A stretch of DNA of 47,688 nt from assembly GCA_044341565.1 (NCBI GenBank), contig JBIIRM010000008.1:1-47688 (forward strand), written 5' to 3'. Numbering within the stretch: the stretch's first letter is position 1; every line of letters starts with the position of its first letter. Under the pieces are notes generated by a model. The model saw only the letters and a program-made list of their open reading frames with translations, did no database searches and was not told the DNA's origin. The stretch comes from Minisyncoccia bacterium (GTDB taxonomy: Bacteria > Patescibacteriota > Minisyncoccia > SW-4-49-11). The translations under genes and the position numbers were made by a program. Of the stretch, positions 5,366 to 47,688 are shown piece by piece.

Positions 5366-5987
5366 AGAGAAAATTACATTAGGATATGTCCTTACAAAAT
5401 ATCGGCTAAAGTCGAATTTAACCACGGAACAATTAGCTGATAAATTATCTATTGAAGAAAAATATCTAATTGCTCTTGAAAAAGGAGATTATCATGAATT
5501 TACTTCATTAAATCAACCCTTTCCCATTATTAAGAGGCTAAGTTATGTATTTGGACTTAAATATAATGTTTTAATCGAATTATATCATCAAGAATATGAA
5601 ATTTATATACATCAATTAGATCAAAAAAAAGCAAAACCTAAACTGATTATTAGTCATACTATGATGAGAATGTTTATAGGTATTACTATAGGATTGATTG
5701 TCGTAATATATTTAGGAATACAAGTATATCAATTAGGATATACTCCGGTATTAACACTTAATAATAAAGATAGCTATGAAATTAATAATAATACAGAATA
5801 TACTTTGACAGGAGATATATCAAGAGCGGGACAATTGACTTTAAATGGACAAAAGGTTACACTTAAAGAAGATGGGAAATTTGAAGTTATATTATCCCTA
5901 AGAGATGGAGAAAATAGATTAGAATTACAAGTTTCAAAAGATAATAAACCATTAAAAACAACACAAAAAATTGTGTATAAACAATAA
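5358..5987 (+). CDS. XRE-type HTH membrane protein (RodZ-like topology)
   Basis: An N-terminal HTH (LTTEQLADKLSIEEKYLIALEKGDY) is followed by a single TM helix (IGITIGLIVVIYLGI) and an extracytoplasmic tail. The likely start MSKEK at 5358 overlaps the ftsK stop by 8 nt, and the track ORF begins at 5298. Confidence 0.45.
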   Translation: MSKEKITLGYVLTKYRLKSNLTTEQLADKLSIEEKYLIALEKGDYHEFTSLNQPFPIIKRLSYVFGLKYNVLIELYHQEYEIYIHQLDQKKAKPKLIISHTMMRMFIGITIGLIVVIYLGIQVYQLGYTPVLTLNNKDSYEINNNTEYTLTGDISRAGQLTLNGQKVTLKEDGKFEVILSLRDGENRLELQVSKDNKPLKTTQKIVYKQ

Positions 5988-17408: not shown

Positions 17409-17460
17409 AAACTATAGCATAAAATAGCAGTTTTGTCAATTTCTGATATTATTTTTCCAC

Positions 17461-17960
17461 CCCTTTCCCTGCTACCCCTCAATTTATCTCCCGTAGGGAG
17501 AGAGGGGAATTAGCTAAGTCCACACCCGTCGACTTTGTCGACACCCTCGCCGGCGAGGCCTGCCTGCGGTAGGCAGGGACAGTTTTATTGTCCTCCCTTG
17601 GGGGAGCTTTGGTTCCTCCTATATTTGTTTAGGAGGGGGTGCCCGTAATAGACTGAAGGTCTGGGAAAGGGGTCGGGAAAACAGAAGTTTTCCCGTGGAG
17701 GAAGGTTGGGAAACCGTGAGGTTTCACAGGAGCAAATCCCATTTGCGACGGGGGAGGGAGGATAGAGTTTAAGTTTGTATTTTATCCACCCCGTCCAGCA
17801 AAGCTGTCCACCCCTCAAGAGGGGAATATATACAATGTACTGTCCTAAAAATTCCCCTCATGGGTTGTGAGTAGATAGGAGTCAGTATATAACAAAGTGC
17901 TTTGTCCGAAAAATTCCCCTCTTGAGGGGTGCCGTCGCTAGACGGCGGGGTGGAAAGTAT
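17461..17960. repeat. GC-rich hairpin-dense intergenic repeat element, copy A (largest; contains all modules)
   Basis: A roughly 55-60% GC island in a roughly 35% GC genome. Its palindromes and stems include gtcgactttgtcgac, ccctcgccggcgagg, cctgcctgcggtaggcagg, ggacagttttattgtcc, ttcctcctata..taggagg, gggaaaac..gttttccc, gcaaatcccatttgc and cccctcttgagggg. The core 17664-17755 recurs at 38596-38660 and 47131-47302. Confidence 0.6.
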
Positions 17961-30061: not shown

Positions 30062-31408
30062 ATGGCAGGGAATAATTCTCTTGATTCATTTACCAAAAAT
30101 CGCAACGTAATTATTATTGCTGGTGTCGCTATATTAGCTATTGTTATATTGATGCTTGGTAATGCGCTTGGATTCAAAATTGGAGGTGAGAAAAAAGTAC
30201 AAAAAGCAAATTTGGTAGTATGGGGAGTCTGGGATGAAAGTGAGACAATGACGAAATTGGGAAGTGATTTTCGTAAAATATATCCTAATGTAAGTATAGA
30301 ATATCGTAAATTCAAGCCACAAGATTATGAGACAGAACTTATTAATGCTTTAGCTGAGGGACGAGGTCCAGATATATTGGCAATGGAGAGAACTTGGCTT
30401 GGTAAACATAAGAATAAGTTAGCCCCAATGCCAGAAGAAATTATGACACTCAAAGAGTATCAAGATACTTTTGTAGATGTGGTTAATCAAGATTTTATTG
30501 ATGAGGGTAAAATATATGGATTCTCTCTATACACCGATACTTTAGCATTATTATATAACAAAGATGCTTTTAATGATGCTGGAATTGCAAATCCACCAGT
30601 AACTTGGGAAGAATTACAAAGTATAGTACCCAAATTAACTAAAATAGATCAATTTGGTGAGATTAAACAGGCGGGAGTTGCATTAGGTACAGGAGATAAT
30701 ATAAATCGTTCACCAGATGTTTTGATGGCATTAATGTTACAGTCTGGAGCTCAATTTACTGACCCTAAAGATACTAGTAGAATTACTTTTTCTCAAAGTA
30801 AAAATGTCAATGGACAAAATATAAATCCTGCTCAATTATCTTTAGCTTATTATACCGATTTTGCTAATCCTCGAAAAGGAGTATATACCTGGAATTCAAC
30901 CTTAAATAATTCAATAGATGCTTTTTATGAAAGAGAAGTTGCTATGATATTTGGATATTCATATCAGGTAGAAGCAATTAAAGCAAAAGCCCCAAGACTT
31001 AATTTTGCAGTAGCTCCTCTCCCTCAGGTATCTACAGATTCTGGCCTTGCTAATTTTGCAAATTATTGGGGATATGGAGTAAGTGGTCAATCTAAATACC
31101 CAAAAGAAGCCTTTGCATTCCTCAAATCAGCCACTGAAAAGGAAAATGCTCAAGAGTATTTCTTGAAAACCAAGCGCCCAACAGCCAGAAGAGATTTAGT
31201 AGATACACAATCACAAGACATTGATTATGGAGTATTTGTAAAACAAATATTACAAGCTAAAACCTGGAGACAACCCGATAATAATTCAGTAGATAAAATA
31301 TTTATCAATGCTATTAATGGAGTAAATTCAGGATTACTTGACTATAGTAAAGCTATTTCGCAAGCTCAAACAGAAATACAGACATTAGCTGATAATGTGA
31401 AAAAATGA
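30062..31408 (+). CDS. extracellular solute-binding protein (family 1, sugar-type), membrane-anchored by N-terminal TM helix
   Basis: The TM anchor IIIAGVAILAIVILML is followed by a MalE-like SBP_bac_1 pattern (VVWGVWDESE...PDILAMER...). No permease or ATPase gene lies adjacent. Confidence 0.55.
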   Translation: MAGNNSLDSFTKNRNVIIIAGVAILAIVILMLGNALGFKIGGEKKVQKANLVVWGVWDESETMTKLGSDFRKIYPNVSIEYRKFKPQDYETELINALAEGRGPDILAMERTWLGKHKNKLAPMPEEIMTLKEYQDTFVDVVNQDFIDEGKIYGFSLYTDTLALLYNKDAFNDAGIANPPVTWEELQSIVPKLTKIDQFGEIKQAGVALGTGDNINRSPDVLMALMLQSGAQFTDPKDTSRITFSQSKNVNGQNINPAQLSLAYYTDFANPRKGVYTWNSTLNNSIDAFYEREVAMIFGYSYQVEAIKAKAPRLNFAVAPLPQVSTDSGLANFANYWGYGVSGQSKYPKEAFAFLKSATEKENAQEYFLKTKRPTARRDLVDTQSQDIDYGVFVKQILQAKTWRQPDNNSVDKIFINAINGVNSGLLDYSKAISQAQTEIQTLADNVKK

Positions 31409-32730
31409 AATATATAAAGTTCAGTATAGTTTTTGGTATAATATTCTTAGTAGTTTCATTTTTTAGTATTAACTATACTAATGCACAGAGTGCAGATGGA
31501 GCTTGTAGTGCAGGGGCAACATCATTAGAGCAAAACTGTACTTTTCAAAATGGAAGCTCTCGTTTAAATGGAAAATGCCAGGTTAAAGATAAAAATAATC
31601 CAGGTTTAGGATTAACTTGTCGTACTAGCTTAGGATCATCCTGCTCAGGTGATACTTGTCAAAATGGATTAGCCTGTATTAATCAGGTTTGTTCCAGTCC
31701 AAGAGGGGCTAAAACTCAAGGTCAATCTTGTTCAGGGAATGGAAATGAATGTATTGCAGGTCTTGAATGTAGAAATTTTATATGTACAAAAGAAGCTGCC
31801 ATTACTGGTGGAGGGTCTGGGCAAACTGGAGGTGGTCAAGTCGGTACCCCTGGAGGCTCAACAGGGGCAGAAACAGGCCTTGTTAAATGTGGAGTGAGTC
31901 GAGATTGTACTATTTGTGATATATTTATCTTAATTCGAGATATCTTTAATTTTGCTTTAGGGCTACTAGCCTCACTCGCGGTATTAAGTGTTGTTATTGG
32001 TGGGGTCTATGTGTTGACTTCAGCAGGTAATCCTGGAGCGGTAAGTACAGGATATGGCATTATTACCAATGCAGTAATTGGACTATTACTCGTAATGGCA
32101 AGCTTTCTCTTATTTAGTTTCCTTCTTGTGGGGCTTGGATTTCAAGAACAAAATTTCTCAGCTGTACTTACTTTTCAACCAGGTAAAGTATTCGAGGTAA
32201 AATGTGATAATGCTAGTACTTTTAATGATAATGGATCAAATGGAGGAGGGTCTGCTGTACTGGGTAATGGTGGGAGTAACTCATCAACTATAAGTTGTGC
32301 GAGTTTAAATGATTCGGTTAAGGCGGATTTAAATAATGCTAGTTCTCAGACGGGTGTTCCTTCTGAACTATTGGCTGGAATTATGCAAAGAGAATGTCCT
32401 GCAGCCTTTAATAATGCTAATGCTTGTCCAAATGAAAATGGCTCTGGAGCAGCTGGAGCAGGTCAATTTTTACAAAGTAGCTGGAATGAGCTGGGATGTA
32501 GTGGAAGTAGAACGAATCGAAGAGATGCCCTTGTTTGTATGGGGAAACATTTAAAACGGTATAATAAATGTTCTAGTCAATGTAATGGATATTCTAATTT
32601 TTCATCCAGAGCTTGTTCTGATTGTGTGGCAGGAGATTATTGTGGTGCATGTTCAGGTTCATCAGCTTGTGGAGGTAATTATTGTGATGGGGTGTGGAGT
32701 AACTATCAAAAATTTAAAACATGTAAATAA
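31405..32730 (+). CDS. Cys-rich secreted protein, VirB2/TrbC-like two-helix segment, C-terminal lytic transglycosylase (SLT/VirB1-like) domain
   Basis: A signal peptide is followed by repeated C-x-C modules (CSGDTCQNGLACINQVCSS; CSGNGNECIAGLECRNFIC). The hydrophobic hairpin ALGLLASLAVLSVVIGGVYVLTSAGNPGAVSTGYGIITNAVIGLLLVMASFLLF is homologous to the downstream pilin paralogs. The C-terminus LLAGIMQRE...SGAAGAGQFLQSSW resembles SLT motifs (catalytic E, then GAxGLMQ). Confidence 0.5.
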   Translation: MKYIKFSIVFGIIFLVVSFFSINYTNAQSADGACSAGATSLEQNCTFQNGSSRLNGKCQVKDKNNPGLGLTCRTSLGSSCSGDTCQNGLACINQVCSSPRGAKTQGQSCSGNGNECIAGLECRNFICTKEAAITGGGSGQTGGGQVGTPGGSTGAETGLVKCGVSRDCTICDIFILIRDIFNFALGLLASLAVLSVVIGGVYVLTSAGNPGAVSTGYGIITNAVIGLLLVMASFLLFSFLLVGLGFQEQNFSAVLTFQPGKVFEVKCDNASTFNDNGSNGGGSAVLGNGGSNSSTISCASLNDSVKADLNNASSQTGVPSELLAGIMQRECPAAFNNANACPNENGSGAAGAGQFLQSSWNELGCSGSRTNRRDALVCMGKHLKRYNKCSSQCNGYSNFSSRACSDCVAGDYCGACSGSSACGGNYCDGVWSNYQKFKTCK

Positions 32731-32734
32731 TAAT

Positions 32735-33841
32735 ATGAATAAAATCTTCAGTCTATTTTTACTAATAGCATCTTTCTATTCTATTTCTCCAGTATATGCA
32801 GATACTAGTATATACTCAAGTTTCTTATATCCAAGTTTTGCTGTAAATAATGAAATTTTATATTTTGATCAATATGCAGGAGCTATTGTGAAACAAAATG
32901 TTATTACTGGTGAGAAGTCAGAGATATTTGATTTAATACCTTCTGCTACTAACTTAGTATCAATTTCTCCTGAACAATCTAAAATATTACTTTATCCTCC
33001 TAATATATCATTTCCAAAATATCAAGCACCATTTTTTGATAGTTCAAGAAAATCTCCCGATAATCAATGGTGGGTATATGATTTTAATACAACAAATAAA
33101 ATACTACTAGATGATAAAATTAATTTAGTTGGCTGGTATTCTGATAATGAAATTATATATGTATTTAATAATAAAGATATCACAGTTGCCCCAACCAATG
33201 ACCTATCTAAATTTAATATTCTATACTCTAATATACCATCTAATGTGGATATTAATAAACAAATTATAGCAAATGATAACCATCAAATAATTCCATTAGT
33301 TGATGGTTATCTTGTGGGAAATAAGAAAAACTTTGTATATCAAAAAAGTACTAATTATCAAATTTCAGCCAATCCAAAATTGAATTATTTTTTGGAATAT
33401 AATAATAGTCAGATAAAAGTTTTTGATTGGGATAGTAAGCAAGTAGGTAGTATTATTAATATCAGTAACAGGAAAGCTTTGTTACTGAATAATGATACTA
33501 TAGCTATATTGGCTACAAATGGTAATTTGATACAATATAATTTACAAGGGCAGGAGCAATCAAATGTATCATTAAATCCAATAGTTACTGATATATATTC
33601 GGTTGATCAATCTGGAAATGAACTATTAATTAATCAAAATAATCAAATACGTACTTATAATTTATTAAAAAAAGAGCAGGGAACCATCCTATTATCCACC
33701 AATACTCCTACTCCTAATACTGACACAAATTCAGAGACAGAACAATCCAACACATTAGGGAATATTGCTATTTTAATAGGAGGAATAGTATTCCTTGCTG
33801 GGGGACTGGGGCTATTTATTTGGAAATTAAGAAAAAGATGA
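32735..33841 (+). CDS. secreted protein with C-terminal TM anchor, hypothetical
   Basis: The track ORF starts at 32585. The Met at 32735 gives a clean signal peptide (MNKIFSLFLLIASFYSISPVYA) directly after the upstream stop. The body is Asn/Ile-rich and probably beta-rich. The C-terminal anchor is IAILIGGIVFLAGGLGLFIWKLRKR. Confidence 0.45.
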   Translation: MNKIFSLFLLIASFYSISPVYADTSIYSSFLYPSFAVNNEILYFDQYAGAIVKQNVITGEKSEIFDLIPSATNLVSISPEQSKILLYPPNISFPKYQAPFFDSSRKSPDNQWWVYDFNTTNKILLDDKINLVGWYSDNEIIYVFNNKDITVAPTNDLSKFNILYSNIPSNVDINKQIIANDNHQIIPLVDGYLVGNKKNFVYQKSTNYQISANPKLNYFLEYNNSQIKVFDWDSKQVGSIINISNRKALLLNNDTIAILATNGNLIQYNLQGQEQSNVSLNPIVTDIYSVDQSGNELLINQNNQIRTYNLLKKEQGTILLSTNTPTPNTDTNSETEQSNTLGNIAILIGGIVFLAGGLGLFIWKLRKR

Positions 33842-33871
33842 TATAATTAAAAATAATTAAATACAGATACT

Positions 33872-34711
33872 ATGAAATTAATCATATCTACAGCATTTGG
33901 AATTGTCTTTGCACTAGTATTCTTTAGTAATTCTAATATAACACTTGCTCAATGTGGAAGTGGTCCAAGCTGTACAGGGAATTTTGTTTGTGTGAACGCA
34001 GATGGTACTCCTAAATGTTTGCTAAATCAGGTTAGTAATAATGGTTTATGTGAGGGCGACTCTTCTGTGAAATGTTCAGCAAATCAAGCTTGTATTCAAA
34101 ATAATGCAACAGAAATTGTATGTGCCCCTTTAGCGGGATCATCAGCTAATACAAATTTACCAGGTTCTGGAAGTACAACAACTTGTCCAACCTGTAAATC
34201 TGGTGAAACATGTATTAAGAGTGCAGCAGGACCACTCGTATGTAGATCCGCCGCTACAAATTGTACTCCTGCTTGTACAACAGGTAAGGTGTGTGTTAAA
34301 GCAACGCCAACAGCAACTACTGGAACTTGTGTAGATAATGCGCCTACTCAAGCTGCTGGAGGAGCTGGTGGTAATGGTGCTGGAGGGAATGGATCTTCAG
34401 GAGGAAGTGGTGGTGGCTTATTAGAAGGTCTCAATGCTTTTGGTAGTGCAGATTCTGGACTTAATACAGAGGGAACTCTCATTGGGTTTATTTCTAATAT
34501 TATTCGTTGGATATTAGGACTTCTTGGAACTGTGTTCTTTGTAATCATAGTTTTACAAGGGTATCTTTATATGACATCTTCAGGAGATGCGAGTAAAACA
34601 GCAGCAGCTACGGGGGCTATTACTAATGCAGTAATAGGACTACTGATTATTATGGGAGCTTTCCTCATTACTAATTTTGTGACAAGTGGTTTGATTGCCG
34701 CTGGGTCTTAA
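33872..34711 (+). CDS. Cys-rich and Gly-rich secreted protein with C-terminal VirB2/TrbC-like pilin domain
   Basis: A signal peptide is followed by four roughly 25-aa Cys modules (CGSGPSCTGNFVCVN...; CPTCKSGETCIKS...) and a linker GGAGGNGAGGNGSSGGSGGG. The C-terminus is ...IRWILGLLGTVFFVIIVLQGYLYMTSSGDASK...NAVIGLLIIMGAFLITNFV. Confidence 0.5.
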   Translation: MKLIISTAFGIVFALVFFSNSNITLAQCGSGPSCTGNFVCVNADGTPKCLLNQVSNNGLCEGDSSVKCSANQACIQNNATEIVCAPLAGSSANTNLPGSGSTTTCPTCKSGETCIKSAAGPLVCRSAATNCTPACTTGKVCVKATPTATTGTCVDNAPTQAAGGAGGNGAGGNGSSGGSGGGLLEGLNAFGSADSGLNTEGTLIGFISNIIRWILGLLGTVFFVIIVLQGYLYMTSSGDASKTAAATGAITNAVIGLLIIMGAFLITNFVTSGLIAAGS

Positions 34712-34721
34712 TATCTTATAT

Positions 34722-35069
34722 ATGATAGAAGCATTTATATCCAATTTCATCATAGTAACAGCTAAAGCCCAGGAGACATCGCCTCCTCCTATATTAGCTA
34801 TACCTACAGGAACAGGAGTGGGGGAGCAAGGAGATCTGTTTACTTTTGTGTCAGCTATTGTGCAATGGGGATTGGGATTAATAGGGATAGTATTATTTGT
34901 ACTTATACTCTTTTCTGGATTCCAATATGCAACAGCAGGGGGCGACTCTAAAAAAACTGAAGAAGCTATTAGTAGAATTACTTCTGCAGTAATCGGAGTA
35001 TTCATTGTAGGGGTGGCTTTTATACTATCCAATGCAGTATTAGGATTTGTTTTTAGTCTAGGATCTTAA
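34722..35069 (+). CDS. VirB2/TrbC-like pilin family protein
   Basis: The core reads VQWGLGLIGIVLFVLILFSGFQYATAGGDSKKTEEAISRITSAVIGVFIVGVAFILSNAV. The track ORF starts at 34695, overlapping the upstream gene. Confidence 0.5.
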   Translation: MIEAFISNFIIVTAKAQETSPPPILAIPTGTGVGEQGDLFTFVSAIVQWGLGLIGIVLFVLILFSGFQYATAGGDSKKTEEAISRITSAVIGVFIVGVAFILSNAVLGFVFSLGS

Positions 35070-35169
35070 TATACTGACTTATCCACAATAGTATCACTTG
35101 CATAGTAATATAAGATATGATAGTATAAAAACATAGAACATATTATTCAATAATTATTAAGATATTCTT

Positions 35170-35553
35170 ATGAATACTTCCCAGATAAAATCAATAGCAA
35201 CAAGAGCATTATTACCTGTATTAGTATTAGCTCCTACTTTAGCTGGAGCTGCAACTCCCATAAAAGATACTAGAGTCATAGGTGAAATACCTCAAGTAGC
35301 TGGTACTAATCAATCTACTGACCTTGTGGCTACAGTACAAGTGGTTATTCAATGGGCATTAGGATTTATCGGAATTGTAATATTCATTATTTTCTTATTT
35401 GCAGGATTTGAATATGCAACAGCAGGAGGAGATGAAGGAAAAGCAAAAACTGCACAGTCTCGAATGATTAACGCGGTAATTGGACTTATTATTATATTCT
35501 TTGCCTTTGTAGCTTCAAATGCAATATTGTCATTCGTATTCCCAGGAAATTAA
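35170..35553 (+). CDS. VirB2/TrbC-like pilin family protein
   Basis: A signal peptide is followed by the core IQWALGFIGIVIFIIFLFAGFEYATAGGDEGKAKTAQSRMINAVIGLIIIFFAFVASNAIL, two TM helices separated by a short loop. Confidence 0.55.
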   Translation: MNTSQIKSIATRALLPVLVLAPTLAGAATPIKDTRVIGEIPQVAGTNQSTDLVATVQVVIQWALGFIGIVIFIIFLFAGFEYATAGGDEGKAKTAQSRMINAVIGLIIIFFAFVASNAILSFVFPGN

Positions 35554-35580
35554 TCAAATTGATAGATACTATGAAACAAT

Positions 35581-35606
35581 AAAAAGGGATTATATCCCTT
35601 TTTATT
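35581..35606 (+). terminator. rho-independent terminator-like hairpin
   Basis: The sequence aaaaaggga-ttata-tcccttttt is followed by a T run, 28 nt after the upstream stop. Confidence 0.5.
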
Positions 35607-35697
35607 GTTTAGAGAATACATATTCAAATAGTATAATCTTCTTGTCAGATAATAGAATACTTGATATACTTGTAATATATAGAATAGTAAAATAGAT

Positions 35698-36114
35698 ATG
35701 AGAGTCTTATTGATTATAATAGCTTTATTGATGGGGGTATTTGTATTAAGTTCTAATATATCTCTAGCTCAAAGAGCCCCTGATGCCACTCTCCCTGGTC
35801 CAGGAACAATCCCAATTAATACCGGAATAGCTGAGGGACCAAGCTTGATAGAAACAGTGTCTATTATTATAAGGTGGATATTAGGATTTATTGGAATTAT
35901 AATATTTATTATATTCCTATATGCAGGATTTGAATATGCAACAGCAGGAGGGGATGAGAAGCAGGCTGAATCAGCTCAAAAAAGAATGGTAAATGCAATC
36001 ATAGGACTGATTATTATATTCTTTGCATTTGTATTGTCGAATGCAGTATTAAGCTTTGTATTTCCTCCAGACGATACAGTAGATGATCCTAATATGCCAT
36101 TAAATGTAAATTAG
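35698..36114 (+). CDS. VirB2/TrbC-like pilin family protein
   Basis: A signal peptide is followed by IRWILGFIGIIIFIIFLYAGFEYATAGGDEKQAESAQKRMVNAIIGLIIIFFAFVLSNAVL. The motif is near-identical to that of the 35170 gene. Confidence 0.55.
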   Translation: MRVLLIIIALLMGVFVLSSNISLAQRAPDATLPGPGTIPINTGIAEGPSLIETVSIIIRWILGFIGIIIFIIFLYAGFEYATAGGDEKQAESAQKRMVNAIIGLIIIFFAFVLSNAVLSFVFPPDDTVDDPNMPLNVN

Positions 36115-36115
36115 T

Positions 36116-36556
36116 ATGAAATATCTATCAATAGTAATAATTGCAATAATGATACTAATGAGTAATCCTTTTATTAGCTTTGCAGGTACCCCATCAGGGG
36201 GAGGAACTACTCCAGCTACGGGTGGTACTCCATCAGGGGGAGGAACTACTCCAGCTACGGGTGGTACTCCCACAACCCCAACTGACAATACTTCTGCTCA
36301 AAGTGTAGGATTTGTGAATCCAATTCGATTTAATTCTATCCCTGAGCTTATAGCAGGTATTATCAATGCTCTCTTGGGTATACTCGGAGCTATTACTGTG
36401 GCAATATTAGTGATGTCAGGATTTAAATATATGACAGCTTCTAATCCAGGAGCAGTAGGGCAAGCTTTAGATGGTATTAGGAATGCAATTGTAGGACTTA
36501 TGATTATTATGGGGGCTTTTCTCATCACACAATATATTATATCTGCTTTGGTGTAA
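36116..36556 (+). CDS. VirB2/TrbC-like pilin family protein with Pro/Thr/Gly-rich tandem-repeat N-region
   Basis: A signal peptide is followed by (TPSGGGTTPATGG)x2 and then the core LIAGIINALLGILGAITVAILVMSGFKYMTASNPGAVGQALDGIRNAIVGLMIIMGAFLIT. Its start is 1 nt after the upstream stop. Confidence 0.5.
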   Translation: MKYLSIVIIAIMILMSNPFISFAGTPSGGGTTPATGGTPSGGGTTPATGGTPTTPTDNTSAQSVGFVNPIRFNSIPELIAGIINALLGILGAITVAILVMSGFKYMTASNPGAVGQALDGIRNAIVGLMIIMGAFLITQYIISALV

Positions 36557-37323: not shown

Positions 37324-37390
37324 GATAAAATGAACGAATTACTTTCTATATATAGCATATTTTAGGTAAAATGTCAATATTTATAGACAA

Positions 37391-37418
37391 TAAAAAAGCC
37401 GTGACATTGTCACGGCTT
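37391..37418 (-). terminator. rho-independent terminator (minus strand)
   Basis: On the minus strand the hairpin agccgtgaca-atg-tcacggct is followed by TTTTTTATT, just downstream of the stop of the 37435..38460 gene. Confidence 0.55.
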
Positions 37419-38460: not shown

Positions 38461-38576
38461 TTTGTGAATGAACGAGGGACTTCTTATTCATAACACAAAA
38501 TCATAAATTTGTCAACTCATAATAACAGGTGTATATACATAAAATTATTCCGACTCAGGTCAATGAGTACTTATAA

Positions 38577-38786
38577 TGTCCTCCCTTGGGGGAGGTGGGG
38601 AAAGGGGTCGGGAAAACGAGAGGTTTCACAGGAGCAAATTTTATTTGCGACGGAGGAGGATAATTCAAAAAGTCCACACCCACCGCTAACGCGGTACCCC
38701 CTCGCCAGCGAGTGACAGATTTAATATCCTCCCCCGGGGGAGGATAAAATAGTACAGGCGACTGAAAGGTCGCCCCTACAAAATTG
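38577..38786. repeat. GC-rich hairpin-dense intergenic repeat element, copy B
   Basis: This copy contains, in order, cctcccttgggggagg, the gggaaaggggtcgggaaaac..ggtttcacaggagcaaatTTtatttgcgacgg core, aagtccacaccc, ccctcgccagcgag, cctcccccgggggagg and ggcgactgaaaggtcgcc. Its order is shuffled relative to copy A. Confidence 0.6.
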
Positions 38787-38821
38787 ATAATTCACAACTA
38801 TTACTTCATCTCAACCTTGTA

Positions 38822-38931: not shown

Positions 38932-39345
38932 ATGCCTACTATACAACAATTAGTACGAAAAGGTCGTAAGACCGGAGTAAAGAAAACCAAGTCCCCAGCA
39001 TTGGCTAGAACTTTTAATGTTCTCAAAAACAAGCCTATGGAGAGTAATTCTCCTTTCAAAAGAGGAGTATGTGTGAAAGTTACTACTACCACTCCAAAAA
39101 AACCTAACTCAGCTTTACGTAAAATTGCAAGAGTTCGATTATCTAATGGACAAGAAGTTACTGCGTATATTCCAGGAATGGGACATAATCTTCAAGAGCA
39201 TTCAGTAGTAATGCTAAGAGGAGGGCGAGTAAAAGATTTGCCTGGAGTACGATATCATATTGTTCGAGGAGTATTAGATACTGCTGGAGTAGATGGACGA
39301 TCTCAAGAGCGAAGTAAATATGGGGTAAAAAAGCCGAAGAAATAA
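38932..39345 (+). CDS. rpsL: 30S ribosomal protein S12
   Basis: [13 protein letters not shown]...[10 protein letters not shown] is the canonical S12 sequence. Confidence 0.95.
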
Positions 39346-39369
39346 GGTTAATTAAGATATTGTAATATT

Positions 39370-39837
39370 ATGGCTAGAAGAAAGCGCAATTATACCAGAG
39401 AAATCGAACTTGATCCACGATACAAGAATCTTTTGGTTTCTCAATTCATCAACTATATTATGTTGGATGGTAAAAAGTCAGTAGCTCGAAATGTATTTTA
39501 TGGAGCTATGGATATTATTGAGAAAGATTATTCACAAGAACCATTAAATGTATTCAATACTGCGGTAAAGAATGTATCTCCTGCCGTTGAGGTAAAATCT
39601 CGAAGAGTTGGGGGTGCTAATTATCAAGTACCGGTAGAAGTTCGACCAGAACGAAAAACTTCTCTTGCTTTTCGATGGATTCTGGATGCTGTACGTAAGA
39701 AAAAAGGTAAGTCAACTGATAAAAAATTAGCTGAAGAGTTAATGGATGCTTTCAATAAAACTGGTTCTGTTATCAAGAAAAAAGATGATACCCAGAGAAT
39801 GGCGGAAGCAAACCGAGCTTTTGCTCATTTGAGATAA
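39370..39837 (+). CDS. rpsG: 30S ribosomal protein S7
   Basis: MARRKR...NYQVPVEVRPERK is canonical S7, immediately downstream of rpsL. Confidence 0.95.
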   Translation: MARRKRNYTREIELDPRYKNLLVSQFINYIMLDGKKSVARNVFYGAMDIIEKDYSQEPLNVFNTAVKNVSPAVEVKSRRVGGANYQVPVEVRPERKTSLAFRWILDAVRKKKGKSTDKKLAEELMDAFNKTGSVIKKKDDTQRMAEANRAFAHLR

Positions 39838-39926
39838 TTGAAATACTGCTAAGAATCCTGCCTATGAATATCATGGTCAGGATTTGAGCGGTGAGTATAC
39901 TAATTAGTAATTAATAATCAAATACC

Positions 39927-42047
39927 ATGGCCAAAGATCACAAAGATATTCCTCTTGATGATGTTCGTAATATTGGAATTATTGCGCATATTGATGCAGG
40001 TAAAACTACTACTACGGAGCGAATTTTGTATTTCACTGGATTAAAGCATAAAATTGGTGAGGTTCATGATGGTGCGGCTGAAATGGATTGGATGGCACAA
40101 GAGCGAGAGCGAGGAATTACTATTACCTCAGCAGCTACTACGTGTTTTTGGAAAGATCATAGAATTAATATTATTGATACTCCTGGCCATGTTGATTTTA
40201 CTATGGAAGTGGAGCGATCTCTTCGTGTACTTGATGGTGCTGTTACTGTATTCGATGGAAAATCCGGTGTAGAACCACAATCTGAGACAGTTTGGCGACA
40301 AGCTGATCGATATAATGTACCGCGAATTTGTTTTGTGAATAAAATTAATCAAACGGGAGGGGATTTTTATAAATCATTTGCATCTATTCAAGAGCGACTA
40401 TCTAAGGATGCAGTAGTTATTGCTCTTCCTATTGGATTTGAGCAAGGTATACGAGGGCTTGTAGATTTGGTAGAGAATAAAGCTTATGTCTATGCTGATG
40501 AAGCTGGTATGACTGAAATTGTTGAGGCTGAAATCCCCGCAGATATGCTCGAGCAAGTAGAAGAATATCGACAAGTATTAATGGAGAAAGTCTCAGAAGT
40601 AGATGATAGACTTATTGAATTATTCTTGAATGATGGTGTGCTCTCAACTGAAGAGATGAAATATGCTATTCGACGAGGAACTCTAGAATCAAAGATTTTC
40701 CCCGTACTTGGAGGAGATTCTCGAACTGCTATTGTACGAAAACTTCTTGATGCTGTTATTGATTATCTTCCATCCCCATTAGATATTGATGCCGCTAAGG
40801 GTACTGATGTTAATGATGAGGAAAAAGAATTAGAAAGAAAGGCAGACAAGAATGAGCCATTTGCAGGACTTGCTTTCAAAATTGCAACTGACCCTTATAT
40901 TGGACAATTAGTATTTTTCCGTGTATATTCTGGAACTCTTAAGAGTGGAAGTTATGTGTATAATTCAACCAAGGGGGAGAAAGAGCGAATTTCTCGACTT
41001 GTTTTGATGCATGCTAATTCTCGAACCGAAGTAGATGAATTATCTGCAGGAGAAATTGGAGCTATTGTAGGACTTAAGAATACTACTACTGGAGATACTC
41101 TTTGTGATGAGAAAGATCCTATTATTTTGGAGAAAATTGTTATCCCAGAACCTGTTATTCAGATTAAACTTGAGCCAAAGACTAAGGTAGATCAAGAAAA
41201 AATGAGTTTAGCTCTTCACAAATTATCTGATGAAGATCCAACTCTTAAAGTTAGCTCTGATGAAGTGACAGGAGATACCCTTATTGCAGGAATGGGAGAG
41301 CTTCATCTTGATATTATTGTGGATCGTATGAAGCGAGAATTTGGTGTAGAAGTAAATGTAGGACAACCACAAGTAGCCTATAAAGAAACTATTCAAAGTT
41401 CTGCTGAAGCACAAGGGAAATATATCAAACAATCAGGAGGAAAAGGACAATATGGAGATGTATATCTTCGAGTTGAGTCATTTGATCCTGAAACAACTGA
41501 AATTGATCCAAAGAAACCACAACATTATATTTTTGGAAATGAATTAAAGGGAGGATCTATTCCATCTGAATATGTGCCTGCTATTGAAAAGGGAGTAAAA
41601 GAATCTATAGATCGTGGTGTTATAGCTGGATATCCATTGATTAATATCAAGGCAACCGTATATGATGGATCATATCATGATGTTGACTCCTCTGAATCAG
41701 CTTTCAAAATTGCAGGTTCTATGGCTCTTTCAGCCGCTGTAAAAAAAGCAAATCCTATTATTCTTGAGCCAATTATGGCTGTCGAAGTAACTATCCCAGA
41801 ACAATATATGGGAGATGTAGTAGGAGATTTGAATTCACGACGAGGACTTATTGAAGAAATGAATGATAGAACTGGTGGACTTAAAGTTGTATCAGCAAAA
41901 GTACCTCTATCTTCAATGTTCGGATATGTGACTACACTTCGGTCTATGACACAAGGACGAGGAAATGCAGTGATGGAATTCAATGATTATCAGCCAGTTC
42001 CTAGCAATGTACAACAAGATATTATTGCCAAGAGAACAGCGAAATAA
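39927..42047 (+). CDS. fusA: elongation factor G
   Basis: The N-terminus [21 protein letters not shown] and the GTPase motifs DTPGHVDF and NKID are present. All five EF-G domains are present. Confidence 0.95.
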
Positions 42048-42117: not shown

Positions 42118-42210
42118 GTAATCCTCCTCCGTTCCTCCTATATATAATAGGAGGAACACCTCCCCCCAAGGGAGGACAGAAATTTTGTCCCTCGCCAGCG
42201 AGGGACAATA
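42118..42210. repeat. GC-rich hairpin-dense intergenic repeat element, copy C (short)
   Basis: This copy contains ttcctcctatatataataggaggaa, cctccccccaagggagg, ggacagaaattttgtcc and gtccctcgccagcgagggac. These are the same modules found in copies A and B. Confidence 0.55.
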
Positions 42211-46163: not shown

Positions 46164-46308
46164 ACTGATAATTAATTACTACATAGAGTTGCTGCATTCA
46201 GTATATACGATATATAGGTTTCTAGCAAACAAAATAATAGATTGCTAAATGAAAAAGAGGAGCTCATATTGAGCTCCTTGGTGAGAGGGGGGTAGAGCGC
46301 ATCCTTAT

Positions 46309-46563
46309 TCAGTCAGGCTCATAGAATGCACTGGAGTAGGGGAGGGCTTCAGTAAGGTTGAATGCCTCTTTTCGAGACATGGAGTTCAATTGCCGTGTGC
46401 GACAACAGCTACAGAATCTTCCATTTTGTTCGAATACCCGCACTTCTCCATGAACTCGAATGTGGATATCTGCGCCTACCCAGCGTGAGACTTGATTTGT
46501 GCAATTAGGCGTTGCACATGGGGCATTGAGTACATAATCAAGAATCCGATCAAGAAATGACAT
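46309..46563 (-). CDS. small Cys-rich hypothetical protein (possible zinc-binding)
   Basis: The 84-aa protein has the Cys pattern C..C-x4-C...C-x-CC (PCATPNCTN...FCSCCRT). Local GC is higher than in its neighbours. No family was recognised. Confidence 0.3.
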   Translation of the reverse strand: MSFLDRILDYVLNAPCATPNCTNQVSRWVGADIHIRVHGEVRVFEQNGRFCSCCRTRQLNSMSRKEAFNLTEALPYSSAFYEPD

Positions 46564-46635
46564 GACAGAAAGTCGAGTTTACAAAAATAACCATACCATA
46601 TTTTTGCAAAAATGTCAATATGTATAAACAATTTA

Positions 46636-46974: not shown

Positions 46975-47060
46975 GGAGAGTTCGCATAGTTGGTCTAGTG
47001 CGCACGCTTGGAAAGCGTGTATACCGCAAGGTATCAAGAGTTCGAATCTCTTACTCTCCG
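46975..47060 (+). tRNA. tRNA-Ser (anticodon GGA), class II with long variable arm
   Basis: The acceptor stem pairs GGAGAGT with ACTCTCC. The anticodon stem-loop is CACGC-TTGGAAA-GCGTG, giving anticodon GGA. The long variable arm is TATACCGCAAGGTAT. The T-arm is CAAGAGTTCGAATCTCTTA. CCA is not encoded. Confidence 0.8.
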
Positions 47061-47067
47061 CAAAAAT

Positions 47068-47098
47068 TAAAAATAGGGGTTTTTGCCCCTATTTTTAA
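47068..47098 (+). terminator. rho-independent terminator after tRNA-Ser
   Basis: The hairpin aaaaatagggg-tttttg-cccctattttt has an 11-bp stem with a T-rich tail. Confidence 0.55.
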
Positions 47099-47130
47099 TT
47101 TCCGTGAGTTAGTAAAGAGAAATTCGAACT

Positions 47131-47410
47131 CGGGAAGGGGTCGGGAAACGGAAGTTTCCTGTGGCGGAAGTAATCAATACCCCTAGATAGGAAGGCAATG
47201 AGGAGCTTGCTCCGAATGTCGGAAACCGTGGGTGTCCGAGATGGGGTTGTAGGGGTATTGAGGGAACTGAGGGGGTTTCAAAGAGCAAATCCCATTTGCG
47301 ACGAGTTCGGAATCTCTTACTATCTATATTCCGACACTCGGGAATAAATCCCTCGCTGCCTTCCTGCACGGGGGATTTTGCCTTCATACATACGATGTAT
47401 GAAATCCTGA
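47131..47410. repeat. GC-rich hairpin-dense intergenic repeat element, copy D, containing a duplicate of the tRNA-Ser 3' end
   Basis: The segments gggaaggggtcgggaaacggaagtttcctgtgg...ggaaaccgtgggtg...ggtttcaaagagcaaatcccatttgcgacg are homologous to the copy A core. The sequence gagttcggaatctcttactatc (47303-47324) is a 20/22 match to the tRNA-Ser 3' end (47038-47059). Confidence 0.6.
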
Positions 47411-47512
47411 AGGAGTTATTTAGATTCAAACTTCATTTTTAATTGGACTAAATAAATTTTAGTTGGTATTCTATTTATTAGGTGGTATATCAGTTAATCT
47501 AAAAATAATTTT

Positions 47513-47688
47513 ATGTTGAATATATTGTTTTTAATATTACCATTGGCGATAGTAGATAGCTTAAATCCCTTTACTATTGCAACACATGTTTTTTTATTAA
47601 CCACAAAGAATCCTTTGCCAAAGGCAATTTTTCATATTATTGGTATCTATTTAATGTATTTGATAGGTGGTATTTTAATATTTTTAGG
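47513..47688 (+). CDS. 5' end of a membrane protein gene (partial, runs off the window)
   Basis: The ATG at 47513 opens a frame that is still open at the window end (MLNILFLILPLAIVDSLNPFTIATHVFLLTTKNPLPKAIFHIIGIYLMYLIGGILIFL). It is hydrophobic and AT-rich like the host genes. Confidence 0.3.
   Translation, partial: MLNILFLILPLAIVDSLNPFTIATHVFLLTTKNPLPKAIFHIIGIYLMYLIGGILIFL

Follow-up and report, generated by a model that had tools for sequence, protein, structure and literature searches.

Elements that integrate into tRNA genes are recognised by what they leave at their borders, and under the Islander principle a regenerated tRNA gene (tDNA) and a displaced fragment of the original one mark the two ends of an island (PMC4383910). 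Islander discards candidates below 2 kb (PMC4383910), so units smaller than this are missed by design. Within the tDNA, integrases are known to use the T-loop as one of their crossover subsites (PMC4383910; PMC1762012). CIMEs, kilobases long, derive by deletion from a parent that can still be recognised; like other non-autonomous, att-flanked remnants that are mobilised in trans, they keep att-like direct repeats, have no recombinase of their own and occupy a site used by autonomous elements. Casposons are also inserted at tRNA 3' ends, where they are flanked by a duplicated tRNA end and form tandem arrays. Here we describe a non-coding mini-element of ~265 bp (47062-47324) that is docked on the 3' end of tRNA-Ser(GGA) in a 47,688-nt stretch of Minisyncoccia DNA (hereafter the window), and that is a member of a family of docked units in ultra-small, Paceibacteria-like CPR bacteria.

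The docking target is an intact tRNA-Ser(GGA) gene without an encoded CCA (46975-47061, plus strand; ARAGORN; Rfam RF00005, 55.3 bits), the sequence of which is the same in two independent assemblies. Its functional 3' end, comprising the T-arm from the third stem base, the acceptor 3' strand and the discriminator (GAGTTCGAATCTCTTACTCTCCGC, 47038-47061, plus strand; the proximal copy, a), is followed downstream by a degenerate direct copy (GAGTTCGGAATCTCTTACTATC, 47303-47324, plus strand; the distal copy, a_d). The original prediction had stated that the last 22 nt of this tRNA recur 265 nt downstream, and local alignment reproduced its coordinates, pairing GAGTTC-GAATCTCTTACTCTC (47038-47059) with the distal copy through 20 identities, one inserted G and one mismatch. 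The alignment score of 33 was reached by none of 2000 shuffles of the 451-nt spacer (mean 16.0, SD 2.2, maximum 26), and an ungapped search of the window allowing up to three mismatches matched the tRNA-Ser(GGA) end only to the tRNA itself. The extra G of the distal copy lies in the T-loop, and its homology stops at CTTACT, the ...CTCCGC end having been lost. Between the tRNA and the distal copy lie 241 nt (47062-47302), and Pfam gave no match for the largest open reading frame that spans them (47109-47429, minus strand, 106 aa).

The interval opens with a terminator-like hairpin (AAATTAAAAATAGGGG-TTTTTG-CCCCTATTTTTAATTT, 47064-47101, plus strand), delimited by DNA and RNA folds and by locus comparison, which also showed its sequence to be conserved among units docked at other tRNA-Ser genes. 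Because a consensus terminator scan did not flag this hairpin, we only infer that it acts as the tRNA terminator. Immediately downstream, alignment and folding revealed a left arm, a' (CCGTGAGTTAGTAAAGAGAAATTCGAACTC, 47102-47131, plus strand), which is an inverted copy of the tRNA 3' end and its trailer; its reverse complement (GAGTTCGAATTTCTCTTTACTAACTCACGGAAA) is identical to the tRNA end and trailer at 26 of 33 positions, with an alignment score of 26 that was matched by 2 of 2000 shuffles. Together the tRNA end, the hairpin at its centre and a' make up a palindrome of ~95 nt, and the region 47034-47136 folds with a dG of -27.7 kcal/mol (z = -8.1). In predicted folds, a' pairs either with the proximal copy across the terminator or, once the tRNA is omitted, with the distal copy across the core; the latter fold (47062-47420, z = -5.6) places the a'-distal pairing around the core hairpins in a shape resembling a four-way junction. 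The left arm was present in all ten units tested, each of which kept the strongly folding palindrome (z = -5.5 to -11).

Beyond a' lies the GC-rich core of the docked subfamily (47132-47302, plus strand; regular expression and alignment), an 82-nt three-hairpin sequence (GGGAAGGGGTCGGGAAAC...GAGCAAATCCCATTTGCGAC) that is split by a nested palindromic insert of ~89 nt. Outside this insert, the window core is identical to that of locus L014 at 82 of 82 positions, and it matches the core docked at tRNA-Ser(CGA) in L057 at 161 of 171. Units docked at Ser and at Leu tRNAs, drawn from six MAGs, agree over the 82-nt core with 90-100% identity, for which the 71-95% identity of the neighbouring ACR_tran gene between the window and its syntenic relatives serves as a rough yardstick, its loci coming from a partly different genome set. 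Core stems are invariant and loops variable across species, the few stem changes being G-C to G-U on the tRNA strand, and an alignment of 27 core sequences, too conserved for covariation to speak for or against the structure, contained compensatory changes in none of 19 pairs.

Nested within the window core is module Y (47175-47260, plus strand), which is bounded by the inverted repeats CAATACCCCTA and TAGGGGTATTG and is the reverse complement of module X further downstream; BLAST of its region (47166-47269) matched L021, L030, L037, L056 and L060. Module X (47329-47431, plus strand; BLAST) is GC-rich and palindromic with a hairpin, TTCATACATACGATGTATGAA (47383-47403), and is 96% identical to L039 (4432-4536) and 92% to L026, where it directly follows the tRNA on the opposite side of the core from its position in the window. 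It ends in TAGATTCAAAC (47421-47431, plus strand), a remnant of a second left arm that was recognised by comparing the window with the downstream region of L039, in which a core and a distal fragment, both absent at this point in the window, come after the homologue TAGATTCGAACTC. The two loci have the extra-G distal arm in common and are related by module rearrangement, with no clean insertion. Modules X and Y, together with the window copies A-C of the wider GC-rich family, behave like MITE/REP-type repeats.

The same layout, in the order tRNA, terminator hairpin, inverted tRNA end, GC-rich core and degenerate direct tRNA-end fragment, recurs after tRNA-Ser(GGA), Ser(CGA), Ser(GCT), Leu(GAG) and Asp(GTC) genes in related CPR genomes and metagenomes, in line with the expectation that other copies of the repeat would sit at tRNA 3' ends. 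The core lies 130-330 nt downstream and on the same strand of the Ser(GGA), Ser(CGA), Ser(GCT) and Leu(GAG) genes, tRNA-Asp(GTC) has a related core after it, and docked units measure 130-330 bp. Each docked unit closes with a copy of its own tRNA's 3' end (Ser(GGA), GAGTTCG.AATCTCTTACT; Ser(GCT), GGGTTCGTAATCCCTTTCTCTCCGCCA; Leu(GAG), TCAAGTCTCCCTTCTGCGCAC; Asp(GTC), TCCCCGCCAAGAA with an exact inverted TGGCGGGGACGA), and the Ser, Leu and Asp arms are mutually unrelated in sequence, each tracking the adjacent tRNA. A downstream direct copy of the last 24 nt of the tRNA was found only at docked loci (scores 23-44), control scores being at most 21 upstream and 10-18 for Val, Met, Gln, Lys, Thr, Tyr, His and Ala tRNAs in the same loci. 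The unit at tRNA-Asp excludes the idea that docking is confined to class II tRNAs with a long variable arm.

Direct repeats are 13 nt long at Asp, 18-21 nt in type 3 units and at Leu, and 22-30 nt at Ser. The starts of the fragments fall in the T-loop (start marked by a slash: type 3, GTGACC/GAATCTC; Leu, GCGAC/TCAAGTC; type 4, GCGAT/AATCC), and in Ser type 1 fragments a base is added or changed at TTCG^AAT. At T-loop positions a' agrees with the proximal and not the distal copy. In L057, TTCAAATCTCTC is common to the proximal copy and a', whilst the stem strand of the distal copy reads CCCTT, as in the orthologous tRNA of L040. A noisy automated comparison of the three copies found 60 sites agreeing with the proximal copy, 29 with the distal copy and 31 with neither, counts that were used for T-loop positions only, as sites distinguishing proximal from distal copies are few (three in L057). 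Tandem units, each with its own terminal tRNA-end fragment, were found in L040, L074 and L093, and a second terminator follows the distal copy in L028, L026 and L030. Free copies of the core end in GGGGGAGGGTGGA and lack target-derived arms, so the 22-nt match is no conserved internal module of the repeat. Association with tRNA ends is confined to the 82-nt docked subfamily and does not extend to window copies A-C and ~45 other family copies, and the proposed tie between the entire GC-rich family and a single mobility mechanism therefore goes too far. Two core patterns found no matches in viral contigs, and literature searches returned nothing on such units in CPR bacteria.

At the syntenic site, recognised by an ACR_tran transporter gene followed by tRNA-Ser(GGA), occupancy differs between relatives. 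The site is empty in L100 and L090 (upstream ACR_tran ~72% identity, no unit), and holds a type 1 unit in the window, L039 and L099, a type 3 unit in L087, a type 5 unit, alone or followed by type 3, in L066 and L093, and a serine-recombinase element of ~2 kb in L092. With empty sites, other unit types, tandem units and a serine-recombinase element represented, the arrangement is not the identical one in all relatives that would have told against an integration footprint. L071 (type 1) and L087 (type 3) have a downstream gene in common. Distal to the element the gene slot is variable, being occupied in the window by the start of a SfLAP-family membrane protein gene (47513-47688, plus strand; Pfam PF11139, E = 9.7e-8) and by other genes in the ORF lists of L039 and L014; gene order in the JGI contig was also taken into account. 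In an unbiased set of 35 tRNA-Ser(GGA) loci with enough downstream sequence, 27 had no direct fragment that reached the score cut-off, the majority of them apparently empty and a small number occupied by a serine-recombinase element or by a truncated unit. No empty site at strain-level distance was found among the relatives compared, and an identical-protein lookup with the 84-aa neighbour gene returned the same organism only, without empty-site information.

No tyrosine or serine recombinase, transposase or reverse transcriptase was found among the 28 window ORFs, the neighbours of the unit are housekeeping genes, and no integrase was found among the downstream ORFs of L039 and L014. A tBLASTn search with four serine recombinases and E. 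coli XerD, for which the query sequence may be inexact and is of low sensitivity, gave no match in the window or MAG loci L003-L062, its hits being confined to the serine-recombinase loci themselves (L070, L085, L086, L092 and L094). These elements abut tRNA-Ser(GGA) in L070, L085, L092, L094 and partly L086, and the gene is a real integration hotspot. As direct mobilisers of the docked units, these serine recombinases were rejected: in the L092/L081 pair the element integrates after the tRNA end and shares only CGCAAA (6 nt) with its target, which cannot explain repeats of 20 nt. No distal tRNA fragments of serine-recombinase elements were seen within the available flanks. The window unit itself, with no gene and a repeat of ~20 nt, does not fit a large-serine-recombinase element as L070, L085, L092 and L094 do. 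A role for a' as a retroelement-like primer-binding site was likewise rejected, the match being exact only at tRNA-Asp and interrupted at Ser, with no reverse transcriptase found.

Set against tDNA islands and prophages, the docked units are alike in being bounded by an intact regenerated tRNA and a displaced direct 3' fragment, with boundaries in the T-loop or at the T/acceptor junction, tandem arrays and variable occupancy. They differ in length (130-330 bp against more than 2 kb), in having neither an integrase nor any other gene, and in containing an internal inverted tRNA end and a ~95-nt palindrome, with one core serving several tRNA arms. By the Islander definition, the window unit has the full-length tRNA, the 3' fragment in the same orientation and an empty site in relatives, but no integrase in the interval, and at ~265 bp falls short of 2 kb. 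CIMEs resemble the units in their repeats, their lack of a recombinase and their position at a site that autonomous integrating elements use, but the unit design is conserved rather than haphazard, and no parent element carrying the docked core was found among the loci compared. Casposons share the 3'-end insertion, the duplicated tRNA end and the tandem arrays, yet have duplications of a fixed 14-15 bp, fixed terminal repeats, Cas1 and a polymerase, whereas docked units have repeats of 13-30 nt and no genes.

Among smaller repeats, MITEs (Correia, RUP, Nezha), REP/BIME sequences and Rickettsia palindromic elements are similarly small, non-coding, hairpin-forming, multi-copy and intergenic, with modular nesting. 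The arms of a docked unit, however, copy the adjacent tRNA rather than a fixed transposase-binding sequence, and free copies lack such arms; there are no family-constant terminal inverted repeats, as the arms pair but differ by tRNA, and no target duplication of fixed short length (13-30 nt). No related autonomous insertion sequence encoding a transposase was seen in the window or the loci compared. As a working analogy, the predicted order of half-site, hairpin, complete inverted site, cargo and half-site is also that of integron attC sites and of CTX-type phages (IMEX) at dif, as are head-to-tail arrays, and the a/a' stem would be a duplex mimic of the target. Here the target is a tRNA gene instead of attI or dif, and RYYYAAC/GTTRRRY core sites are missing from the arms (...ATTCGAACTC and GAGTTCGGAATC), in which GTTCGGA does not fit GTTRRRY; nor is there an adjacent intI with attI, no recombinase having been found among the 28 window ORFs. 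Overall, the units look like the integration of genomic islands into tRNA genes in a miniature and gene-less form.

The reading we favour, and hold to be about evenly balanced between right and wrong, is that of an integrative mini-element, not autonomous, from which the tRNA gene would gain a substitute 3' end while its own is displaced. Such an element would integrate site-specifically into the T-loop region of the tRNA gene, like tRNA-targeting genomic islands, bringing a replacement 3' end and terminator that would leave the tRNA intact, and the original 3' end would be pushed to the far side and decay there. The proximal copy (47038-47061) would then be supplied by the element and the distal copy (47303-47324) would be the displaced original end, whilst a hypothetical excision junction would join the end of the core to the tRNA end and terminator (...ATTTGCGACGAGTTCGAATCTCTTACTCTCCGCAAAAATTAAAAATAGGGG). 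A recombinase would have to act in trans, the unit itself being gene-less. We infer that recombination, not another copying process, made the unit, which of the proximal and distal copies was borne by the element, and that a trans-acting recombinase would mobilise it, no integrase having been found in the window or linked to any unit. The original reading of an integration footprint is partly upheld in that other copies are tRNA-associated and the arrangement is not fixed, but it had overlooked the inverted copy, because of which this is not a plain att duplication, and no integrase was found. Counting against the favoured reading, a plain attP/attB model has no need of a', yet a' is present in all ten units, and the presence of the same core (a related one at Asp) with Ser, Leu and Asp arms is beyond what simple site-specific recombination can produce. 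The module rearrangement between the window and L039 also counts against it, and neither circles nor excised copies of the unit have been seen.

By analogy with known single-strand integration, it is conceivable, if quite unlikely, that the unit integrates as a folded single strand, which would make it mobile DNA of a new kind. Once circular, it would fold so that the tRNA-end copy and a' pair across the terminator into a duplex mimic of the tRNA end. A tyrosine recombinase, either the host's own or another acting in trans, would then swap a single strand between this mimic and the tRNA gene, much as happens with CTX phage at dif or with integron cassettes at attI. The conserved 82-nt core with its three hairpins would serve as a scaffold for recognition or replication, and exchange of the arms, acting as addresses, would direct the unit from one tRNA to another. 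Less likely is a variant in which the core would be an RNA scaffold and the two arms guides for both target strands.

Among explanations that dispense with integration, an unlikely one is template-switch duplication without a recombinase, producing a direct-inverted-direct triplication. Synthesis would fold back at the terminator hairpin and reverse-copy the tRNA end to give a', then switch back at the T-arm hairpin, where TTCGAA is palindromic, and recopy the tRNA end as the distal copy, the GC-rich hairpin module being placed between a' and the distal copy later. The order of the three copies is as expected, a hairpin is found at each junction (the terminator loop at one, the T-arm at the other), a' matches the proximal copy and its trailer, and the match of arms to any adjacent tRNA, Leu and Asp included, needs no extra assumptions; the second terminators after the distal copy in three loci also agree with it. 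It would, however, take two rare events per locus, the triplication and the insertion of the 82-nt core in the same place, at no fewer than 12 loci. The terminator common to Ser-docked units across tRNA-Ser genes and genomes points instead to a transferred block, the L057 distal copy carries the T-stem strand of the orthologue rather than the current one, and tandem units with different cores are more easily produced by repeated insertion. A core-less a'/a scaffold was not clearly seen among the loci compared; L083 and L079 offer degenerate hints of one.

To the same low degree probable is a functional structured element that is not mobile, its arms matched to the tRNA by gene conversion and its spread due to homologous recombination, for example a small RNA on either strand sharing the tRNA terminator, or a structure insulating or terminating tRNA transcription. 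The almost invariant core with fixed stems and variable loops, the palindrome kept in every unit tested, the four-way-junction-like fold of 47062-47420 and the G-C to G-U direction of the few stem changes are all consistent with such a function. Against it stand the patchy distribution, the empty syntenic sites, unrelated cores at the same site and the tandem units, as well as the lack of compensatory pairs, of any convincing promoter found at the element and of an Rfam family. In Rfam 15, searches by gathering threshold and by E-value that covered the whole window and a short docked unit in L014 gave tRNA and RNase P RNA as the sole families, and a 281-nt query with E relaxed to 10 likewise gave no match overlapping the element. 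Function and mobility do not exclude each other.

Decidedly unlikely is the proposal, also part of the original prediction, that the unit is the stump of a larger, gene-carrying element in tRNA-Ser, CIME-like in that attL and attR were left and the interior deleted. The tRNA-Ser(GGA) hotspot with its serine-recombinase elements would suit this history, as would the changing gene content beyond the fragment, the L019 locus, where a foreign GC-rich ORF instead of a tRNA precedes a core and tRNA-end fragment of the docked type, and a longer tRNA-half fragment in L082. Independent deletions, however, would not repeat a 130-330 bp design with the 82-nt core, terminator and a' at five tRNA species, and serine-recombinase elements leave an identity of 6 nt and not a 20-nt repeat; given this recurrent and conserved design, a stump is improbable as a general explanation. 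Chance resemblance or convergence on a generic T-loop motif has practically no probability left, for although GTTCGAATC is a widely conserved tRNA motif, TTCGAA is palindromic, short matches are common and control scores reach 18-21, it is refuted by the shuffles, by the control scores and by the Leu and Asp alignments, in that the match runs into the tRNA-specific acceptor strand (CTTACT) and the same relation holds at tRNAs with ends unrelated in sequence.

Such loci also call for care in annotation: the fragments can be mistaken for tRNA pseudogenes, and the units would supply the terminator of the tRNA. Standard island finders drop tRNA-fragment intervals below 2 kb (PMC4383910), and a whole size class of elements would thereby be overlooked. 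If integration holds, these would be the smallest known elements to use the tRNA-gene integration strategy, in which the end of an essential gene is replaced and the insertion thereby made harmless, in bacteria of the CPR, the mobile-element biology of which is barely described. Ultimately, arms that follow the adjacent tRNA around a near-invariant core point either to a copying or retargeting step outside current models or to a functional structure at tRNA 3' ends.

The last 22 nt of tRNA-Ser(GGA) (47038-47059) recur in direct orientation at 47303-47324 (20 identities, with a single inserted G and a single mismatch), and the local score of this copy (33) was reached by none of 2000 shuffles of the 451-nt spacer (mean 16.0, maximum 26); the duplicated tRNA 3' end of the original prediction is therefore correct, coordinates included. 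Overlooked at that stage was an inverted copy at 47102-47131, whose reverse complement (GAGTTCGAATTTCTCTTTACTAACTCACGGAAA) is identical to the tRNA end plus trailer at 26 of 33 positions. The unit docked on the tRNA gene comprises a proximal copy, a, inside the tRNA (47038-47061), a hairpin that is terminator-like by fold (47064-47101), the inverted copy, a', a core (47132-47302) in which 82 nt with three hairpins are split by a nested palindromic insert, Y (47175-47260, ~89 nt), and the distal copy. Downstream lie module X (47329-47431), the reverse complement of Y, with a remnant of a second a' at 47421-47431, and an SfLAP-family gene starting at 47513. When the tRNA 3' part was included in the fold, the tRNA end paired with a' across the terminator-like hairpin, giving a palindromic hairpin (47038-47131; dG -27.7 kcal/mol, z = -8.1), whereas without the tRNA, a' paired with the distal copy instead, in a stem closing around the GC-rich core.

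This tRNA gene (46975-47061, forward strand) is the only one in the window, and misassembly of the region is unlikely because two independent assemblies agree with it, L002 showing no difference through the tRNA and all downstream sequence and L001 none as far as 47228. The window has ~34% G+C and a housekeeping gene content (by Pfam, FtsK, enolase, RecJ, MetRS, GatB, GyrA, GreA, PriA and an MgsA-type ATPase); RNase P RNA is also encoded, and the ORFs at 38932-42047, judged by position and length, look like genes for ribosomal proteins S12 and S7 and for EF-G. Its closest public relatives are MAGs labelled Paceibacteria, Parcubacteria or, for L039, Saccharibacteria, all of the CPR/Patescibacteria radiation. 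At 46263-46632, a 370-bp segment with a Cys-rich 84-aa ORF (46309-46563) stands where L039, the 94.6% identical relative, has 14 nt, and a 40-nt promoter-like repeat with TTGACA is found at 46593-46632 and again at 37352-37391. The paralogous small and medium ORFs at 31405-36556 have common C-terminal T4SS_pilin-like segments (Pfam PF18895 in two) as well as repeated DNA blocks (repeat families D1, D3 and D7), and look like a diversifying surface or pilin protein family.

Scanning one genome per species with the last core hairpin (GAGCAAATYYYATTTGCGAC) returned 60 loci, nearly all in CPR genomes, whose copies fall into two groups by the sequence after GCGAC. In ~45 copies this is GGGGGAGGGTGGA-like, and these are not near tRNAs; in the remainder it is the 3' end of a tRNA, the core lying 130-330 nt downstream of the same-strand tRNA gene whose own end is copied. 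Docking was found at Ser(GGA) (window, L039, L014), Ser(CGA) (L057, L040), Ser(GCT) (L026, L059, L028) and Leu(GAG) (L006, L023, L060). In L030, tRNA-Asp(GTC) carries a related core, with an inverted arm (TGGCGGGGACGA) that is the exact reverse complement of the last 12 nt of the tRNA, CCA included, and a direct repeat (TCCCCGCCAAGAA) identical at 13 of 13 positions. Among all 72 tRNAs of the loci examined, direct downstream copies scoring at least 23 occurred only at docked loci, whereas upstream control scores never exceeded 21 and other tRNAs scored 10-18. Association of further repeat copies with tRNAs thus holds for the docked 82-nt group, to which the tRNA-derived arms are confined, and not for the larger group. 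The proposed tie of the whole GC-rich family to mobility goes too far, the non-tRNA copies showing no link and the free copies no arms: no upstream direct or inverted partner was found for free 87-nt and 107-nt copies, window copy A included. Copies of these two free subfamilies invariably terminate in GGGGGAGGGTGGA-like sequence. Other GC-rich hairpin clusters in the window (17460-17960, 38570-38790 and 42120-42210), none beside a tRNA, are mosaics of a few module types, namely CCTCC/GGAGG hairpins, the 87-nt core and CCCTCGCCAGCGAGGG.

The order of parts is constant in every docked unit: tRNA, AT-rich hairpin centred on a short G+C stretch, a', core and distal fragment. Besides the window's 82-nt core (type 1), at least three further GC-rich cores show this design at tRNA-Ser(GGA): type 3 (L087, the first unit of L040, the second of L093), type 4 (L074, twice in tandem, and L091) and type 5 (L066, L084, the first unit of L093). 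The palindrome of tRNA end, hairpin and a' was strongly folded in 10 of 10 units tested (z -5.5 to -11), spanning four tRNA species and at least three unrelated cores. Distal fragments start in the T-loop, with boundaries (marked by a slash) of GTGACC/GAATCTCTTACTCTCCGC in type 3 (18/18 identical in L087), GCGAC/TCAAGTC in Leu units and GCGAT/AATCC in type 4. Ser type 1 distal fragments retain GAGTTCG, but precisely at TTCG^AAT they have either an added base (G or T) or G replaced by T; in the a' arm the T-loop is normal, as in the proximal copy. Template switching at the terminator and T-arm hairpins, giving direct, inverted and direct copies, accounts for arms matching any tRNA, but we consider it unlikely, since a second event is needed to put the same core into at least 12 loci and neither the terminators shared across different tRNA-Ser genes nor tandem units with different cores are accounted for.

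Between Ser- and Leu-docked units from six MAGs, the 82-nt core is 90-100% identical. Without Y, the window core matches L014 at 82 of 82 positions, and its 171-nt version matches the Ser(CGA)-docked L057, which shares a genome with L014, at 161 of 171. Loops vary and stems are invariant in the core alignment, and because compensatory changes are zero, covariation neither supports nor rejects the core structure; Rfam gave no match to the element. The X/Y palindromic family is found in both orientations (window 47175-47260 and 47329-47431; L026, L030, L039, L060), either nested in the docked core (window, L057, L060), directly after the tRNA (L039, Ser-GGA; L026, Ser-GCT; 92-96% identical) or free-standing (L030), placements suggesting that, on a second and independent level, modules themselves move or invert. 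L019 (reverse strand, 4300-5386) has a docked-type 82-nt core and a tRNA-Ser-like distal fragment, but ahead of them, in place of tRNA and a', lie a foreign-looking, G+C-rich ORF and a truncated core hairpin. A Dam-like methylase gene follows, as it does after the tandem units of L093, and the arrangement may represent the right end of some larger insertion.

The 5' half of tRNA-Ser(GGA), a query blind to downstream content, matched 39 metagenome loci. Direct fragments were present in 8 of the 35 with sufficient downstream sequence (L071, L074, L076, L082, L087, L097 and, in two units, L093) and truncated units in L099 and L091, and in most others the tRNA is followed directly by a simple terminator or a gene. 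An upstream ACR_tran transporter gene is common to the window and nine loci (71-95% identity), and in eight of these the site is orthologous because ACR_tran and tRNA are both present, the ninth (L012) ending before the tRNA. Downstream of this shared pair, the empty site sought in relatives was found in L100 and L090; the others hold a type 1 unit (L039, L099), type 3 (L087), type 5 alone (L066), type 5 then type 3 (L093) or a ~2-kb serine-recombinase element (L092). A downstream 131-aa gene is common to L071 (type 1) and L087 (type 3). L039, the nearest relative, has tRNA, 36 nt, X, a', another core and the same extra-G distal arm, that is, the window's pieces in another order, so that the two differ by module rearrangement and not by one clean insertion. 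The close relatives L014 (4895-5069) and L099 (9377-9560) differ at one docked unit, which in L014 is complete with its distal fragment and accompanied by a 227-aa gene, and in L099 is broken off within the last core hairpin, has no distal fragment and directly adjoins a glutathione peroxidase gene. At +45 to +95 after tRNA-Ser(GGA), L082 has a longer tRNA half-fragment (variable arm plus T-arm, GTGTAGGGCGTCAAATGCCTCGAAAGTTCGAACCTCTC), separated from the gene by 45 nt with no GC-rich core, which may be a different kind of integration scar. That the docked unit is a functional RNA or DNA structure agrees with its near-invariant core and strong folds, but is at odds with such patchy, interchangeable occupancy and seems improbable; function and mobility could coexist. 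Independent island stumps, which leave the conserved design unexplained, are more doubtful still, and chance resemblance of the tRNA-end copies is excluded.

The docked unit is best matched by the established scheme of tRNA-targeting islands, in which the element's attachment site contains the tRNA 3' part, the gene is regenerated and its original 3' fragment ends up on the opposite side of the insert (PMC4383910). Such islands cross over at one of three subsites, namely anticodon loop, T-loop and T/acceptor junction (PMC4383910), with a T-loop example in PMC1762012. By this scheme the element would supply the tRNA 3' part, integration would restore the gene and the old 3' end would move to the distal side. 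The fit rests on the direct orientation of the fragments, their T-loop starts, the tandem units, the occupancy pattern and L057; the variable repeat length (13-30 nt) is expected of an identity block, not of a fixed staggered cut. The L057 tRNA is identical to its L040 orthologue over the first 64 nt and differs in the T-arm, and, at just three informative sites, its a' has the new T-loop and stem strand and its distal fragment retains the orthologue's CCCTT strand. A plain attP x attB model does not explain the presence of a' in every unit, one core with Ser, Leu and Asp arms, or the altered T-loop position 57/58 of distal copies, possibly a scar or else an inactivating change. Folded single-strand integration, borrowed from CTX phage and integron cassettes, is attractive but unproven: pairing of a with a' across the terminator hairpin of a single-stranded circle would build a duplex that copies the end of the tRNA gene, and one strand exchange with the chromosome would yield the observed order of half-site, hairpin, complete inverted site, cargo and half-site. 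The predicted integration footprint is partly borne out, as a small non-coding unit of integration type, qualified by the extra inverted arm, the negative recombinase searches and the unlinked non-tRNA copies. Such units are not described in the literature that could be searched.

No recombinase was present among the 28 window ORFs scanned, and tBLASTn with four serine recombinases and an approximate E. coli XerD query found none in the window or in MAG loci L003-L062. Large serine recombinase genes (Resolvase, Recombinase and Zn_ribbon_recom domains) adjoin tRNA-Ser(GGA) in L070, L085, L092 and L094, with a partial copy in L086. The gene is the first ORF after the tRNA, on the opposite strand and antisense through the tRNA end, its last residues (..RRVRDSNP/S) being encoded by the acceptor and T-arm. 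L092 (6107 to about 8085) and L081 (124-170) form an occupied/empty pair that defines a very small integrative element of ~2 kb, encoding the serine recombinase, a 137-aa ORF and an XRE-type HTH gene whose last codons (..LEVGVDDLIK) are host flank, present at the empty site too. Its insertion point lies immediately behind the tRNA end, CGCAAA being all that element and target have in common, and these recombinases were therefore rejected as the source of the 20-nt repeats. The pair shows that tRNA-Ser(GGA) is a true integration hotspot. According to the Islander paper, tyrosine integrases alone were known to target tRNA genes (PMC4383910), so the CPR serine recombinases found at such a gene may merit attention of their own.
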